Shown here: positions 5,144 to 54,572 of the stretch, in pieces
Layout of the letters: every line of letters begins with the position of its first letter
How positions within the stretch are numbered: position 1 is the stretch's first letter
Source of the DNA: Octopus vulgaris
Taxonomy: Eukaryota
DNA length: 64,000 nucleotides
Direction of reading: 5' to 3'
NCBI GenBank assembly: GCA_951406725.2
Contig: OX597815.1
Location: forward strand, 205,530,001-205,594,000
Notes under the pieces: generated by a model
Told to the model about the DNA's origin: nothing
The model's database searches: none
Seen by the model: only the letters and a program-made list of their open reading frames with translations
Position numbers and translations under genes: made by a program

Positions 5144-5241
5144 AGAAACAAGTAAGAGATAAATATGTTATTGCTTTCTTTTTTTTTTTTAATCTTTGTT
5201 TCTTCGTTTTAATTTTAATTATTTCTTGATCTCTTCGTTAG

Positions 5242-5477
5242 GGATGGAGATTTGTATGCTGCTTTACGGGACTGTCACAGCGCTCTCCAGTTGGATCTCA
5301 ATTATTTGAAAGCTCATTTCCGTCTGGCCCGCTGCCTCTATGAATTGTCATGGCCCCAAGAAGCTCATGACTGCTTACAGCAGTTCAAGTCCAAATTTCC
5401 AGACTACGCCAGAAACAGTGCCTGTGAGACTCTCGACAGAGACATCAAAGCTGCAATGTTTTCAAAAACTGATCATG
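5242..5477 (+). CDS. WDTC1: WD and tetratricopeptide repeats protein 1, internal exon (TPR region)
   Basis: ttag|GGATGGAGAT...GATCATG|gtatga. Encodes DGDLYAALRDCHSALQLDLNYLKAHFRLARCLYEL...LDRDIKAAMFSK. Confidence 0.93.
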
Positions 5478-5636
5478 GTATGAGTTTTACCTTTTTTTCT
5501 AAAAATCTGTCATTCAATGATTTAGTTATGTCATCTTATAGGCGCAGGAGTGGCTGTGTGGTAAATAATAATAATAATAATAATAATTGTGTACAGTGCT
5601 CAGGTGCACTACAACTCATCTAAAGTGTATATATAA

Positions 5637-8460
5637 TCAGGTGTAGTTTCGGCGGATTTCGGAAAGCATGAGGGCCTTAAAGGATGCAGTGTCATGGCAG
5701 TCAACAACTGACGCAGGCAGTTTATTCCATGCTTCAGCAACTCTGAGCGTGAAAAAATGTTTCCGAAAGTCATAGGAGCTGTGTTGTTTTCTGACTTTGT
5801 AGGCATGTCCACGTGTGTTAGACACATGGAGATCAAAAAGGTGTTCAGTGTTGTTGTTGGTGAGGTGGTTGATAACCTTGTGGGTGTTTACCAAGTCCGT
5901 CGCCAGACGCCGGAGCTTCAGTGAATCCATGCCCAGGGAAACAAGGCGCTCAGAATATGGTAGGTGTCTGATGGAGGGTATGCGTTTGGTTGCACGTCTC
6001 TGGACAGATTCCAGGAGGTCAATGTTCTGAGCAAGATAGGGATTCCAAACTGATGATGCGAATTCCAAGTGCGGTCGTACCATAGCTGTATACAGTTTTA
6101 AATAGATGGCTGGAGAGCGGCTAACAAAAGTCTTGCTGAGTGATGCCAAGACACCCTCGGCCTTCTTGACAATTTTAGAGATATGCTTTGTCCAACGCAA
6201 ATCACTGCTGACAGTGATGCCTAGGTCACGCTCGCAAGAGGATTTCTTGATATCAGTGTTGTGGAGGGAGTATGTGGACGCAGGGTTTTTCTCCCAAAAT
6301 GCATGGTGGTACACTTGTCCACAGCCAGTTTCAGTTGCCAGTCTGTGATCCATTGCTGCATTGTGTCTAGGTCTGATTGCAGGAAAGAGTTGTAGACATC
6401 AGGATCAGTCCTCTTGATTTCAAGGTACAGCTTGATGTCGTCTGCATATTTCAATACTGTGGCATTCTTTAAATTGGCATCTATGTCATTAATGTATGCC
6501 ACAAACAGGAGGGGACCAAGGACAGATCCCTGTGGTACACCCGATGACATCTCATATGGTGTAGAGTGCTGTCCTAGAACTGTGACTACCTCCTTTCGGC
6601 TGAGGATGAAGGATTTCAACCAGTTAAAAAGGTCATCCCCCACACCCATTGCAGAGAGTTTCACCATAAGCCTTTTGTGTGGCACAGAGTTGAAAGCCTT
6701 AGCAAAGTCAAGGTAGACAACATCCACCCATGAGCCACTGTCAGTGATCTGAGTAATGTCCTCAAGGAACTCGACAAGCTGGTCACTGCAGCTGGAGTTA
6801 GGGACAAATCCATATTGTGAGGGTCGGATGAGACTGTGAGAGCTCCAGAAGTTCCAGAGTGTTTCTCTGACACACGATTCCATCAGTTTTGCAATACAGC
6901 TAGTGAGACTGACTGGGCGATAGTTGACAGGTGATGTGCGGTCACCCTTTTTGAACAGAGGAATGACACTGGCAGTTTTCCACTGCTCCGGAGTAGCACC
7001 ATTGTTGAGACAGTACTGGAAGAAAATAGAAAGCTGGTGTAAAAGGAAGTGCCTGCCACATTTGAGAAGCAGATATGTAACTCCATCGAGACCAGGGGAG
7101 GCATAGTTGCGCTTATTTTGAAGGTGACGTCGCAGCATTGCAGGTGTAAATTCCATAGTTGTTATGGAGTTTGCTGTTAGTGATGGTGAAGATGGTACAT
7201 TTTGACTTTCGACAGTGAATATGTTTGCATAGCACTCGGCAATGAGTTCTGTGCATTCCTTGGGGTCGTCAGTGATCTGGTTCGTGTGAGGGTTGCGAAG
7301 AGGGCCCACTGGAGAGTGAGGTCTCTGCTTTGAATGCACATATTTCCAGAAAACCTTGCTGTCAGGATTGGCTGCTATGCACTGTTCAAATTCAAGCACT
7401 GCCTTTTTTGTCACTTGCTTGAGATGGTTGGAGGATTTATTCCGCTTCTTCCTGTTGGTGTCTGATTTATGCAACTTGTATTCCTGTTCAGAAGTCCGAC
7501 GTTCCTTCCTGGCAAGTCGGACCGCTGAAGTTTCCCAAATTGCCCTTTTGGGGCGGTTCTTCTTTTTTTGTTTACGTGGCACTGATGCTGCACATGCTGC
7601 CCATATTGAGTCCAGGATACTCTGGAGTATAGTATTCACATCTCCAGAGTTGTAGAATTCACGCCAGTTTGGGTGCTGTAGTTCAGTGTGGTACAGGTTC
7701 CAATCTGCTCTCTTCCAATCGAAGGAAGCAGATTGGAGATGGTTCAGGTGTTTGTTGCCCGCAAGAGCCAGATTGGCGATGATCATAGCATGATCAGAGT
7801 CACGTAGAGGTTCCTCCGTAGTGCAATTGATAACCGCTTCAGGAGTTGTGGTGAAGAGCAGGTCCAAGGTGTTGTCGCCTCTTGTTGGAGACGTGACTAC
7901 TTGTGACCAGTTTGAGTCCAGCACAAGCTCAACAAAATCGTTTGCACTCTGTGGCCAACGGAAGGTTTCCCAATCGATCTCAGGATGATTGAAATCGCCT
8001 GCAATAAACACATAAGTGGCTGTTTTCCTAGCTGCAGCTCGGAGGATGTTGCAAAGCTGTGTGTCCTGATGGTAATTTGGGGGACGATAAACAACGCCAA
8101 GCAGGAGTGTTGACATGGTCATACGTACGTCACAGAAAAAAACTTCTTCTTGTGATTCGTTCAAATCAGCACAAGGAGTTACCAAAAAATTTGAACGAAC
8201 GTAGACCATCACACCACCACCACGGCGGTTAGTGCGGTCCTTACGGAAGAGGTTGTACCCCGTGATGTTGAAAACCCCATCACAGAGTAAGGAATGCGCC
8301 CATGTTTCCGTGACAGTGATGAAGTCAGGGTCAACACTTCTGATGTAGGCGTTGAACAAATGTATTTTGTTGCATAAACTGCGAACATTTAAGGACAACA
8401 ATTTGTACCCTGCTCGCAGTTTATGATGGTGTGTGGAGGATGGCAGATTGTCCTGGCTTA
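5637..8460 (-). CDS. LINE ORF2 (APE endonuclease + reverse transcriptase), one 1-bp frameshift at ~6288
   Basis: ORFs 6221-8401 and 5637-6353 join (MHFGRK/NPASTY) if one A is added to the A5 run at 6286-6290. Confidence 0.9.
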
Positions 8461-9606
8461 GTTTCCCTGAGTTGCTGTAGTCTTTTTAGTTATTGTGGGT
8501 AGAGAGCACTCAGACCAGCTGGTATCTCTTCCACGTTTCATCAGTCTTGACAAATCTCCAGATTTGTCCATCTTCCCGAAGACTGAAGCTTTCCTGTAGA
8601 GCTGAGTTCCTATTCAGGGAAGCCGCTACACGTAGCTTCGGACGTAGATCGGACGGTAAGCCTGGGCGTGTTCGGAAGGTGGTCCGATTTTCACGCCCAG
8701 CTTTAACTGAGGCCAGATGGTAAGAGGTTGCCTCAGTGTGGTCCGAAAAAGACAACTTGATGAGCCTAGGTTTTGGGCCAGGTCGTCCAAGGCGGATAGC
8801 ACCCGTTGGGGGAACGCAGCCTAAGTCTTTGGCTGAGTTGGCGGCAAATGCCTGAATATCAGCCATGTCTTCAGGCACCCCAATGGCAATGACTTCATGG
8901 GTAGCAGAATCCGCGGTCTTAGATGCGACAAGAGGTACAGGTACAGGGAGGTTCTTTAGCAGAGCATTCCGATAAGACCCCTCATTGTGGAGTCCAACCT
9001 GAATGGTTGCTTTTATTCCTGCTACTTCCCCTCTTAAAGCACAGATCGATTGTTGCAGTTCTGCAAGAACCGCACTGGTCAATTGGTGTTGTTGTTGTTG
9101 CTGCTGCTGCTCTGGTTGTGGTTGATTTTGTTGTTGCTGCTGTTGTTGTTGATGTTGTTGTTGCTGCTGCTCTGGTTGTGGTTGATTTTGTTGTTGCTGC
9201 TGTTGTTGTTGTTGCTGCTGCTCTGGTTGTGGTTGATTTTGTTGTTGCTGCTGTTGTTGTTGTTGCTGCTGCTGCTGCTCTAGTTGTGGTTGATTTTGTT
9301 GTTGCTGCTGTTGCTGTTCCGCCTCCTCCATGGGAGTGGCAGGGGGAGACACAATCGTCGGTTGTGGAGGCACGCAGGCCTGACACTGAAAAGTCCAAGA
9401 TTTAAGCTGAACCATCTTCCAGAGTCTATCCATCATAGCATTATGATGGCTCTTTTTTGGCCTGGGATCTTCTGAAAGTCCGTGGCACATTGGAGGCAGA
9501 CAGAGATGAGGCATGTCCCACATTCGACCCAGCGATTACGGAACGTATTTTCGGGTTCCGTACAGATGTGGCAGGTGTGATTTTCTGGGCAGTGTTCTAT
9601 TTTGGA
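8458..9606 (-). CDS. LINE ORF1 (PHD-like finger, polyQ, coiled coil, RRM-like), frameshifted
   Basis: CHIC..WVECGTC..VCLQC in ORF 9433-9648 continues as WTFQCQAC in ORF 8510-9523. RRM-like VIAIGVPE..IRLGRPGPKPRLIKLSF is typical of LINE ORF1. Confidence 0.8.
9088..9317 (-). repeat. CAG/CAA compound repeat encoding (Q)n-NQPQPE units in LINE ORF1
   Basis: Five ~45-55 bp units of (caa/cag)n AATCAACCACAACCAGAG. Confidence 0.9.
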
Positions 9607-11291: not shown

Positions 11292-11520
11292 GGAGTAAAC
11301 ACATAAATGTGAAACAAGGTGGATAAAAGAGTACTCAAATACCAGTGGTAGAGTAATATGCTTTATTTAAAGCAGCAGAAAATTCAACAAAACCTGTTAC
11401 TCTGAGTTTCAAGTTGCCGTTCATCGGACAGTTTTTGCTAGAAAAAACTGTCCGATGAACGGCAACGGGAAACTCAGAGTAACAGGTTTTGTTGAATTTT
11501 CTGCTGCTTTAAATAAAGTA
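11290..11520. mobile_element. Penelope-like terminal repeat remnant forming a ~78-bp-arm inverted repeat with a hammerhead-like motif
   Basis: Arms ~11360-11436 and ~11443-11520 are reverse complements. Motif CTGT-CCGATGA-ACGGCAACGG-GAA-ACTCAGAGTA-ACAG. Flanked by (TA)n on both sides. Confidence 0.7.
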
Positions 11521-33817: not shown

Positions 33818-34501
33818 CTGAAAACAGAAATAGAAACGAAATCATTATTAAGAAAACACAATTTCAATCAAATAAATCAGTAAGTGACATTTCTTAGTTT
33901 ATATAAGTTTTAAAATGCTTAACATCCACTTTTCCATGCTTTTATAGGCAAAACAGAATTCTTTGAGGCAGATTTCCTATGGCCAGGCATGTTCTAGTAT
34001 TATTCTTCATGTTACTAATATTAATTCAACTCTAAACTTGTAGTAATATTGATAGTATAATTAACCTGAATTTGCACTTAATTTCATTTAAAAATAATTA
34101 AGGTGGGACTACAGTTTGTAGTATCAGATGTTTCTCAACAACTGATTGTAATGAAATCCTGTACTGGTGACTGTGATTGGTTAAAATGCTTCTTTTAATA
34201 AATGCTGTCAATGTGTGTTACTGCAATCATCAAACATCACGCCTAAGCCCCATACTGATTGGTCAAAATAGGTGGAGCCTAGCAGAAAGTATTTAAAGGA
34301 AAAAATTCAATCATTTCACTTCAGTTAACAAATGTGAAGTACATTAGTTGTTTGTTAATCTGCTACATAAACATTTACCTGAAGATTGTTACAAAATATG
34401 TAAGCACTTGTAATATGCAATATTGAAAAAATTGTAAAAGTACGAAACGTGTGATAATCAAACTATGTTGGAATTTGATTGACAAATATATTTATAAGCA
34501 A

Positions 34502-34827
34502 TTGCAGCGTGGAAGGTGTTTGTAAGACATTTAAGAAACACACAAAAGCCGTTCGATTCACTTCAACATTTAAGTTTAATTTGTCAAAATATTTTCGTAG
34601 CTTTAAGACCACGACCTGTTCACTGACAGCACGGATTTTTGTCAGTGAACAGGTCACGGTCTTAAAGCGACGAAAATATTTTGGCAAATTAAACTTAAAT
34701 GTTGAAGTGAATTGAACGGCTTTTGTGTGTTTCTTAAATGTCTTACAAACACCTTCCACGCTGCAATTGTTTTCGTTTCAGCACACGATCTCAGATCAAA
34801 TCACTTGCTACGCAAGTACATCTCCGT
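34502..34827. mobile_element. Penelope-like insertion: ~130-bp-arm inverted repeat, 17-bp TSD
   Basis: AATATATTTATAAGCAA at 34485-34501 and 34828-34844. Arms at ~34499-34628 and ~34640-34769. Confidence 0.8.
34638..34688 (+). ncRNA. Minimal hammerhead-ribozyme-like motif with G3-C8 core swap (mirror copy on - at ~34580-34628)
   Basis: UUUGUCA-GUGAACA-G-GUC(G/A)C..GCGAC-GAA-AAUAUU-U-UG(A/G)CAAA, manual fold only. Confidence 0.6.
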
Positions 34828-34909
34828 AATATATTTATAAGCAACTTCATAAGTCCTGAATGACAAATAGACATATAGTTCAGGGTTTGTAAAATTGTGT
34901 GTATATATA

Positions 34910-36133
34910 TATCAAGTTGAGTAAAAAGTAAGCAATGGTTTGAAACCTGAAATTCATCACAATTTCAACAATGCAGAAATTTTATTCATCAAAGTTAGTA
35001 CCATTACAATCAACACTATTTTGCCAACGAGTTACAAGTTTGTTTATTCTGGTGACATAAAAATCCAGAACTCTAGAGTGGATGAACTCTCTGAATGTAC
35101 TTTCAGCATTGGTTTGATTTTTGAATTCCTTCTCTCACAGGAAACCATCAAAGTGCTTGAAAAAGTGATAATCAGCAGGAGAAAAGTCTGGGGAATAAGC
35201 TGGGTGGGGAAGAACTTCATAGCCAAGTTCCCTCAACTTCTGGAGTGCCATTAGCAAAACGTGGTCGAGCATTGTCATGAACGATGATTGGCCCTCTTCT
35301 GTTGACCAGTCTGAGACGAAGGAGTAGCAGTTTTTCATTCATTTTGGCAATTTCATGGCAATATGTTTCTGCAGTAATGATTTTAAAAGGTTTTAAGAAG
35401 TTATAGTGGATGAGTCCAGCAGTACACCACCAAACAGTCACCATAACCTTCTTTTTGAAGAGCTCGGGTTTAGGGAAGGTTTTTGGTGCTTCATTTTGGT
35501 CCAACCACTGCAAAGAACATTTTTTATTATTGTATAGAATCCACTTTTCATTGCAAGTTACAATACAGTTGGATCAATCTTGTTACAGAGAAGCAACAAG
35601 CAAATTTCATATCTGTGCATTTTCTAATTTTCATTCAAATCATGTAATACCTATTTGTCGAGCTTTATTGATTTTCCGATTGCATACAAATGGTTGCTAA
35701 CCTGAAGTTCTTTTTGCCAGTTCTCAAATGGTTTTACATGGATATTTCTCAATGATGGTCTTTAATTGACCATCATCGATGACAGATGGGCATCCGTTAT
35801 GCTTTTCAAGGCCTGGGTCAGGTCTCATTTAAGCCATTTTTGAGCTGACCACTCACTGGTCATTTCCTCACCAAACGTTTTGTTAATATCATAGTTAGAG
35901 CTACTCTACGTCCTTTTTTGAAGGAATATCGCACTTTGACAGTTCCATTTCAGACGATTGTAACAACAACGAAAAATATATCAATGTCAGTTTATTGATG
36001 TATTTGGGTAAGTCTGTGTTAGTATTATCAGACAATTGCAAAAGAATGTTTAAAAAATATCCAAAATTCTGCAAAAATCCTGTACAAATTCTTCGTGGTT
36101 CAAAACGTTGCTTACTTTTTACTCAACCTGATA
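34910..36133 (-). mobile_element. Decayed full-length mariner transposon (~1.2 kb)
   Basis: ~35-bp TIRs TATCA(A/G)GTTGAGTAAAAAGTAAGCAA in TA context. HDNARP and YSPDFSPADYHFF motifs, several frameshifts. Confidence 0.93.
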
Positions 36134-36393
36134 TATAATGGGTTTCTTTCAGTTTCTGCTTATCCAGTCACCAGGCCAAGGTTGGCCAAGGTGATGCACA
36201 ATGGGACTGAAACTAAAACCACAGGTTCATCAGAATTAAAAGAAATGACTACAGAACTTATTGAAACTTTACTAAGTCAAACAGCAATACAAGTGTCTTA
36301 TATTGTTTCAGTGCTCTACAGCAGTGGAATCCTGCACCTCTGGGTAGGCAGGAACAAGTGGGGTAGACCTATAAAAGAACACTCAATACATAC

Positions 36394-37964: not shown

Positions 37965-38170
37965 CAAATATAAAGTTAATCCAAACAAGAAAGCACAAAA
38001 AAACACAACTACGCGAGGACATGGAACAAATATAGTATTATTGGATGCTCAGGAAAGAAGGAGGGTTTAACGTTTCGAGCGGAGCTCTTCGTCGGAAACA
38101 TAGGAGAAGGAAAGATCCAGAGAAGGGAAGACAGAGGGAAAAAAATCGCCAACAGTACACACGCGGTCAC
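37965..38170 (-). mobile_element. Penelope-like terminal fragment with hammerhead-like motif (38065-38099)
   Basis: GUUU-CCGACGA-A-GAGC-UCC-GCUC-GAA-ACGU-U-AAAC, inserted in (TA)n. Confidence 0.65.
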
Positions 38171-53661: not shown

Positions 53662-54572
53662 ATGTCTAAGGAATGCTAGCTGATTGTCTTTTTCCTTTTC
53701 CATTGTGAATTGTTTGGATGGCTTTATTGAGTTCACACGATCTAACAGCACTTGGACATCTTCCTCGTGGGGCCAGAGTATAAAGGTGTCATCAACATAT
53801 TGCAGCCATAGGGTTGCTTTTAGTGGTGTTGATCCTAAAGCCAAATTCTCAACGTATTCCATGTATGTATCGGCTATTATCAGTGATAATGGCAAACCCA
53901 TAGCTAAACCTTCTTCTTGTATTCAGGAGTAATGCAACACTTCGCAAATATCTCTTTCGAGTAAAACTACCAGTAGAAGAGAATATGACCAAAGACTGCG
54001 TGTACTCCATCCCATGCAGCTGTGGTAGGTTATACAAAGGTGAAACATGCTGCCCTTTCAAAATAAGGGTAGACGAACATCGCAAAGCTGTAACACGAGG
54101 AGATATTGATAAATCGGGTATAGCTGATCATGTATGGAAAAATGGAGACTACCTTCCCTTATGGGATAAGTTAAAATAATAGACAGAGAACACCACGAGA
54201 ACATAGGAAAACTAAGAGAAGCAGCACACATGTCAGAACACAACAACCTCCTAAGCAGACCAAGTGCAGATATGAATAGCATATGGGAACCGGTATTAAG
54301 GAAGGATAGGAGAATATTAGATTTACAAGCCCTAAAATTCACTCCATAATTGGCATATGGCATAGTGGTTAAGAATGCAAGCTGCTAACCCCAAGATTCC
54401 AGGCAATGACCTGAATAATAATAGTAGTAGTAATAATAATAATATCGAAAAATACTTAGGAATGAGAACCCAGGTTCGAAATTTCCCCAGGATGAAGGCT
54501 GGAGGGTATATCAGCCGAAACGTGTTAACAACAAACAAGATGAGGACACATATCCGTCAAATGTAAATAATG
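53662..54572. mobile_element. Penelope-like element fragment with inverted 5' part
   Basis: RT (AMGLPLS, YVDDTF, FTMEKEKDNQLAFL) is on - at ~53662-53920. GIY-YIG (VYSIPCSCGRLYKGET..RVDEH) is on + at ~53925-54310. A degraded hammerhead-like terminus lies at ~54487-54527. Confidence 0.88.

Follow-up and report, generated by a model that had tools for sequence, protein, structure and literature searches.

Hammerhead ribozymes located in the pLTRs of Penelope-like elements (PLEs), as well as pairs of such copies on opposite strands, have already been described (PMC4209133), and the natural replacement of the 3-8 core pair by U3-A8 is likewise known (PMC3088659; PMC4209133). In the hammerhead of an anole PLE, PAc, the engineered double change C3G/G8C keeps partial cleavage (PMC11167929). 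In vitro, PAc nicks and extends both strands, starts reverse transcription at two sites inside the ORF and uses uncleaved RNA as template, and its protein is predicted to be a dimer (PMC11167929). Against this background, a 64,000-nt stretch of Octopus vulgaris DNA (hereafter, the window) holds an insert made of two head-to-head copies of a 207-nt unit, which is the pLTR-ORF junction (5' end) of a Penelope-like retrotransposon and carries a hammerhead motif with a G3-C8 core. No report of a natural G3-C8 pair was found in the literature searched, a search that missed some key papers. The reading that we regard as quite probable is that of a pLTR-ORF double copy with a natural G3-C8 hammerhead, made by coupled priming from both nicks on capped, uncleaved RNA, and likely inert where it now lies; this is an ordinary Penelope-type insertion whose ribozyme variant is real but modest.

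The insert and its two hammerhead motifs

The insert lies in an intron of a gene whose RRM exon has RNPS1 as its best PDB match (4a8x, E 2.5e-28). Its parts are the following:

33818..36392 (-): RNPS1 host intron (GT-AG), separating the RRM exon from the one that follows
34485..34501: left target-site duplication, its last 3 nt common to the left arm end
34499..34628 (-): left arm, an inverted copy of unit nt 18-149 with the proximal (short) 3' end, without tail
34627..34628: head-to-head junction, a 2-nt microhomology between the arms as compared with source element L141
34627..34830 (+): right arm, unit nt about 5-207, with the distal (long) 3' end
34738..34830 (+): ORF start in the unit, the first 31 Penelope-like codons, open up to the unit end
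34773..34830 (+): 58-nt tail, spanning the interval between the two 3' ends (two putative RT start sites)
34828..34844: right target-site duplication, its first 3 nt common to the unit end

The earlier note had described a 17-bp target-site duplication and arms of about 130 bp, and both descriptions hold. The 17-mer direct repeat has exactly two occurrences within the window and, since the element ends overlap it by 3 nt on each side, the true duplication measures 11-17 bp; the inverted arms (34496-34628 and 34640-34772) extend over 133 nt and are 95% complementary, with 6 mismatches. A rare codon 2 variant is common to both arms, which indicates that both came from one source.

Each arm presents, in order, helix I, the core GUGAACA, an extra G, helix II, GAA, the palindrome AAUAUU, U17 and the second strand of helix I:

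34638..34688 (+): type I hammerhead of the plus copy, with helix I at 34638-34644 / 34682-34688
34645 and 34650 (+): G3 and C8 of the plus-copy core
34653-34657 / 34667-34671 (+): helix II of the plus copy, one mismatch (A-C)
34672-34674, 34675-34680 and 34681 (+): GAA, palindrome and U17 of the plus copy, predicted cut after U17
34580..34628 (-): type I hammerhead of the minus copy, with helix I at 34628-34624
34623 to 34617 (-): minus-copy core from G3 to A9, with C8 at 34618
34615-34611 / 34601-34597 (-): helix II of the minus copy, one mismatch (C-U)
34596-34594, 34593-34588 and 34587 (-): GAA, palindrome and U17 of the minus copy

The letters U4, G5, A6, A9, G12, A13 and A14, the pair A15.1-U16.1 and H17 are those that a type I hammerhead requires, and the minus copy retains all core letters, its helix I being only 5 bp long. 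The parse first given for the two arms is correct for the core, GAA, the palindromic AAUAUU and U17; its helix II, GUCGC/GCGAC, is the family state, intact in neither window arm (one mismatch each). In the source copies L141 and L105, helices I and II fold with pair probabilities of 0.6-1.0; the window copies fail folding, with 0.02 for the plus arm and 0 for the helix II register of the minus arm. Both window hammerheads are decayed and likely inactive as ribozymes at this locus.

About four distinct variant-core families had been counted in the window and taken to suggest an under-described set of ribozyme-bearing retroelements. The count is only partly right and the suggestion is overstated: pLTR hammerheads and opposite-strand pairs had been described before (PMC4209133), and the three other sites include two whose families mostly keep the canonical core. 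At the first of these two (54490-54535) lies a decayed member of a hammerhead repeat that shows canonical CUGAUGA in 3/3 other copies seen. At the second (11362-11518), two copies of a different hammerhead repeat lie head-to-head, both with U4C; the 6 other copies of that repeat that were seen comprise 4 canonical CUGAUGA, 1 U4C and 1 decayed. What stands is the third site, a minimal hammerhead at 38065-38110 (-) with the core CCGACGA, which recurs identically in two other copies (L052 and L250) and has relatives with U at position 6 in six other loci. An Rfam scan at E<=10 returned no hammerhead family match anywhere within the window; as every other hammerhead of the window was missed too, the miss of the G3-C8 motif is not attributable to G3-C8 alone. 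The window presumably also contains a LINE-type frame (5637-8485, -), with 754 aa bearing endonuclease and RT motifs plus a 253-aa piece, and, adjoining it at 5219-5623 (+), what we take to be a TPR-like exon.

The parent element and the history of the 3-8 pair

When the 2.8 Gb genome was searched for copies, the 207-nt unit gave 1,464 candidates at first look and a 25-nt pattern 3,725 exact matches. A looser G3-C8 hammerhead pattern found 6,888 matches versus 6 for its reversed control, which argues against chance as the origin of the motif, and 100/100 of the matches listed (of 6,888) read as this Penelope-like family. Descriptors of the form CUGAnGA drop whole families of this kind, here nearly 7,000 motifs in the Octopus vulgaris genome. 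In an older subfamily, L302-L320, the 3' strand of helix I is lengthened by a 2-nt insertion, and the core pair is still G3-C8. Eight further loci (L037, L039, L057-L060, L062 and L270) represent one inverted-pair insertion that was multiplied eight times with its flanks inside a larger repeat; the seven that repeat the L037 flanks were left out of the 82-copy, 73-locus and pair sets used below and included in the 80-locus count, and L272 (a repeat of L048) was also left out of the 84-pair set.

The earlier note had pointed to a possible link with a Penelope RT/GIY-YIG ORF, and this link was found. An upstream extension of the unit is present in 3/70 first loci, one of them reaching a GIY-YIG frame, and the unit lies downstream, on the same strand, in 34/40 GIY-YIG loci (one match being only 36 nt). 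In locus L105 one unbroken frame of 839 aa joins RT motifs to GIY-YIG through a CX3CX2C linker, and L145 has an RT-EN frame of about 1,000 aa. In L113-L115 and L126 the unit continues past its long end into the RT ORF, so that the ATG of the unit is the ORF start. These same loci, together with L141 and L142, show a pLTR-ORF-pLTR partial tandem, which in L141 is preceded by an inverted truncated copy. The inverted 5'-truncated copy with a tail at one end, here of 58 nt, is a trait of EN+ Penelope-like elements. Atlas matches of the ORF correspond to RVT_1/HTH_animal (0.95-0.96) and GIY-YIG (0.96, 15% of members), and 5/31 aligned homologs match each Pfam family; Pfam and PDB sequence searches with the family ORF itself gave no significant match, and no relatives of the element were found among viral contigs. 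Among named proteins, the closest homolog of the element protein comes from Octopus vulgaris, and the present genome encodes it at 100% identity.

The genome also contains a sister family (L146-L153, e.g., G000:C17:6331137-6338442) with 54% protein identity, intact 1,311-1,312-aa frames and the same two-end tail design (about 56 nt). Many of its copies are 99-100% identical and, judged from these sequences, the family looks active in transposition. Before the RT domain there is an Asn-rich low-complexity stretch, short in the L105 ORF and long in the sister ORFs; Asn-rich inserts are known from rotifer Penelope ORFs (PMC3846280). At the same place as in the G3-C8 family, the sister carries a hammerhead with C3-G8, in which A-U replaces G-C in helix II and C-G replaces U-A in helix I; position 9 is C in 15/15 of the copies displayed. 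C9 occurs likewise in the metagenome locus L155.

Variation at the 3-8 pair was followed further among homologous elements. The descriptor used for six metagenome families had helix pairing built in and allowed all 16 combinations at 3 and 8; across the 78 metagenome loci scanned it gave 8 matches, all Watson-Crick, compared with 1.2 matches per strand in shuffled metagenome sequences. Six of the eight, four with C3-G8 and two with U3-A8, follow a homologous ORF at a distance of 100-400 nt. Altogether, the 3-8 pair is Watson-Crick in 8/8 homologous families (C-G in 5, U-A in 2 and G-C in 1), which are not all independent because L159 and L160 are close relatives, and 14/20 homolog loci with a 3' flank, several of these flanks being short, gave no hammerhead call. 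Downstream of the ORF in L154 (by ~110-150 nt), a C3-G8 core and helix II can be discerned by eye with no clear A15.1-U16.1, and this locus was left uncalled. In a tree that left out L209 (108 aa), the family groups with its C3-G8 sister (support 100/100), and the relatives around this clade have C3-G8 or U3-A8. The retention of a Watson-Crick pair in all eight families argues that the swap to G3-C8 is real and compensatory, and the position of the clade that G3-C8 is derived; it is one evolutionary event.

Inside the family the picture is different from that between families. Of 192 non-G3 copies, C8 is kept in 100/100 of those listed, with no 3/8 covariation within the family among the non-G3 copies listed, and these copies read as single changes after insertion and not as covariation. 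Subfamily-level variation in 82 aligned copies, whose core is partly fixed by the patterns used for picking them, affects 10 columns: loop II contributes 5 of these and the spacer 3, and the remaining two are a synonymous codon position and a helix I site where an A-to-G change keeps the pair as a wobble. Thus, covariation at 3/8 is borne out across the eight homologous families and within the family is not; even so, the proposed Penelope-type dimer hammerhead with a compensatory G3-C8 core is supported by the RT and GIY-YIG link and by the 3-8 covariation between families. G3-C8 completes the natural 3-8 series (C-G, U-A, G-C) inside one retroelement clade.

Short copies, paired ends and the insertion mechanism

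The copies share a 5' limit. Taking 80 loci in genome order, 98 cores were found in 78 loci, of which 89/98 start within about 25 nt before G3 and 9 extend upstream into the 3' UTR; at their 3' ends, 48 are long and 44 short. The base preceding the start is G in 864 matches, whereas the source has C or T there; before this added G stands T in 54, A in 41 and G in 5 of the 100 matches listed (C excluded), and A precedes the start in only 7/100 of the matches listed (of 1,408 non-G). Because T precedes G in 54/100, some G-copies could derive from a source variant. A single G added at a fixed 5' limit is the expected trace of reverse transcription over a cap, and on this pattern the added G is likely the cap footprint of uncleaved RNA. 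If this holds, the short copies would have been made from RNA uncut by the hammerhead, as with PAc in vitro. The 5' limit sits in an initiator-like TCAG, and the Penelope element of D. virilis has an internal promoter with an initiator (PMC2377424).

The two 3' ends are not combined at random. Among 73 de-duplicated loci there are 36 single units and 37 inverted pairs, all head-to-head; 34 of the pairs are short+long, 3 other+long and none has two alike ends (excess of short+long, p 1e-10 against 50:50). The 84 pairs in all, a set partly selected for long ends, comprise 70 short+long, 2 short+short, 0 long+long and 12 pairs in which an end could not be classed. Inverted arms often start at a 3' end and are shortened on the 5' side to variable points, as priming from a second nick predicts, and 12/37 pairs have an 11-14 bp non-microsatellite duplication. 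The arms agree in loop II type in 28/32 pairs and differ in 4/32 (mixed subfamily), so that most pairs would have one source and some two templates or a chimeric source. The one-short-one-long pairing and the 5'-shortened arms together point to coupled priming from two nicks, one per RT start. A counterpoint is that, for PAc in vitro, the choice of RT start is equal on both strands (PMC11167929).

The proposed sequence of events would begin with a Pol II start at the A of the initiator-like TCAG, 22 nt before G3. The element protein would then nick AT-rich DNA once on each strand, at positions about 12 bp from one another, one nick priming at the distal RT start inside the ORF to give the long arm with tail, and the other at the proximal RT start to give the short arm. 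Priming at the first such site of the RNA would yield a cDNA of only 150-207 nt to the cap, plus G, and the two cDNA ends would be joined by microhomology. The hammerhead of the source element would probably act as a dimer via its palindromic helix III, cutting slowly or with protein help, and transposition would not need cutting.

The strongest competitor, possible though clearly behind this scheme, is that the G3-C8 motif no longer cuts even in the source element and is retained for its fold or as a module for RNA pairing. It would agree with the thousands of copies that combine an intact motif with the extra G and would thus stem from uncut RNA, and with cleavage mutants leaving insertion unaffected in vitro (PMC11167929). 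Moreover, a join at the predicted cut site is seen in only 57 genome matches; 30 of these were viewed, and apart from about 2 solo copies they are inversion junctions or substitutions, the control being swamped by the older subfamily with the 2-nt insertion. The seemingly active sister, with A9 changed to C, further suggests that catalysis may be dispensable. However, a Watson-Crick 3-8 pair maintained through three pair types is a demand of the catalytic fold, the 10 variable columns spare core and helices (the core being partly fixed by the search pattern), and U17 avoids a G3-C17 misfold (PMC3884650).

A related and more speculative idea, to which we give a rather low probability, is that a dimeric protein holds two capped RNAs paired by the palindromic helix III, one RT start per nick, the G3-C8 hammerhead being primarily an RNA-pairing module and a nuclease second. 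If true, it would account for arms that lie head-to-head, a tail on one side only, duplications of 11-14 bp and also the 4/32 mixed-subfamily pairs.

It is unlikely that the 5' limit is instead a 3' splice site and that the inverted arms arise by self-priming on an antisense template, as proposed for the head-to-head arms of rotifer Penelope (PMC3846280). The sequence ahead of the limit does resemble a branch point (CTAAC), a pyrimidine run and a 3' splice site AG, and the intron of the D. virilis element ends at helix I (PMC4209133). Yet what the copies gain is one G with a variable preceding base and not a shared upstream exon, their inverted arms start from defined 3' ends and vary freely in the extent of 5' truncation, and neither short+long pairing nor mixed-subfamily pairs (4/32) are expected from the fold-back of one molecule.

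As to the host gene, RNPS1 lies on the minus strand, which makes the minus copy sense in its pre-mRNA; the RRM exon match and the GT-AG intron confirm the earlier statement to this effect. That this copy cleaves RNPS1 pre-mRNA and thereby regulates the gene is nevertheless very improbable, for all that it has every core letter: helix II has its mismatch and helix I only 5 bp, a single sense copy is without dimer partner, and the plus-copy complement is transcribed first, so that the arms pair into a 133-bp hairpin (folding energy about -245 kcal/mol for the 471-nt region). In addition, contigs of runs X16 and X17 (one study) span the site without the insert, with 52 letters versus 431 in the window, and thus represent empty alleles. 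The broken helix II, the hairpin and the empty alleles speak against a working ribozyme in this pre-mRNA and make a role of the insert in RNPS1 control unlikely; most likely it is a passive intronic hairpin. The 133-bp hairpin (34499-34772) is a candidate substrate for A-to-I editing.

Least probable of all is to read the insert as a MITE (a non-autonomous DNA transposon bounded by terminal inverted repeats) or as a rolling-circle retrozyme. Long inverted arms bounded by a duplication might recall these, but 36/73 loci are single units, arm lengths vary, the tail is on one arm, the unit forms the end of an RT-EN element, and no head-to-tail arrays or permuted starts occur among the sampled loci. 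The MITE is refuted by inverted repeats neither fixed in length nor present at both ends of every copy, and the head-to-tail tandems of non-LTR retrozymes are replaced here by solo and head-to-head units.

Coupled priming from two nicks stays the favored account. The copies hold a useful record of how Penelope-like elements insert: together with an apparent cap footprint at a fixed start, their one-short-one-long pairing makes a testable rule of the known "inverted copy, tail at one end", for which the sister family, with its intact near-identical ORFs, offers a protein.

Comparison with known systems

With the pLTR hammerheads of metazoan PLEs (Cervera and de la Pena 2014, PMC4209133), the octopus family shares the type I fold in a pLTR, the extra base between 9 and 10.1, G10.1-C11.1, a small palindromic helix III and a majority of solo copies accompanied by some opposite-strand pairs; the core pair differs, being G3-C8 in octopus, whereas the natural swap in the available text of that work is U3-A8. 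Natural core variants (Perreault et al. 2011, PMC3088659) likewise display 3-8 covariation, with U3-A8 the only swap named in the accessible part of that report.

A further parallel is with the Anolis carolinensis Poseidon element PAc (Frangieh et al. 2024, PMC11167929), which shares the hammerhead at the pLTR-ORF junction and AT-rich targets and, as proposed for octopus, two in-ORF RT starts bounding a tail, an uncleaved RNA template, and the nicking and extension of both strands. C3G/G8C was engineered in PAc, whereas G3-C8 is wild type in the octopus family. Compared with PAc as described there, the octopus hammerhead lies wholly before the ATG, the tail has 58 nt and the linker has a Zn-finger-like motif; in addition, the octopus genomic pairs show a strict short+long coupling that, in the available account of PAc, is unseen in vitro (PMC11167929).

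Neptune/Nematis-type EN+ PLEs (Craig et al. 2021, PMC8557442), compared by description, have in common with the octopus element an RT followed by a C-terminal GIY-YIG, two Cys between motifs and the CX3CX2C linker (read in L105 and in the sister), as well as partial tandems, an inverted 5'-truncated copy, a one-end tail and microsatellite targets. The EN+ PLE layout as described (PMC8557442; PMC3846280) matches L141, with a tail of 58 nt in octopus versus the 30-40 nt quoted. Finally, animal non-LTR retrozymes (bioRxiv 10.64898/2026.07.22.740005) are also built of short units that are pLTR-related, do not code for protein and carry a type I hammerhead, but these are described as head-to-tail arrays, whereas the octopus units are solo or head-to-head and have their fixed 5' limit ahead of the ribozyme.
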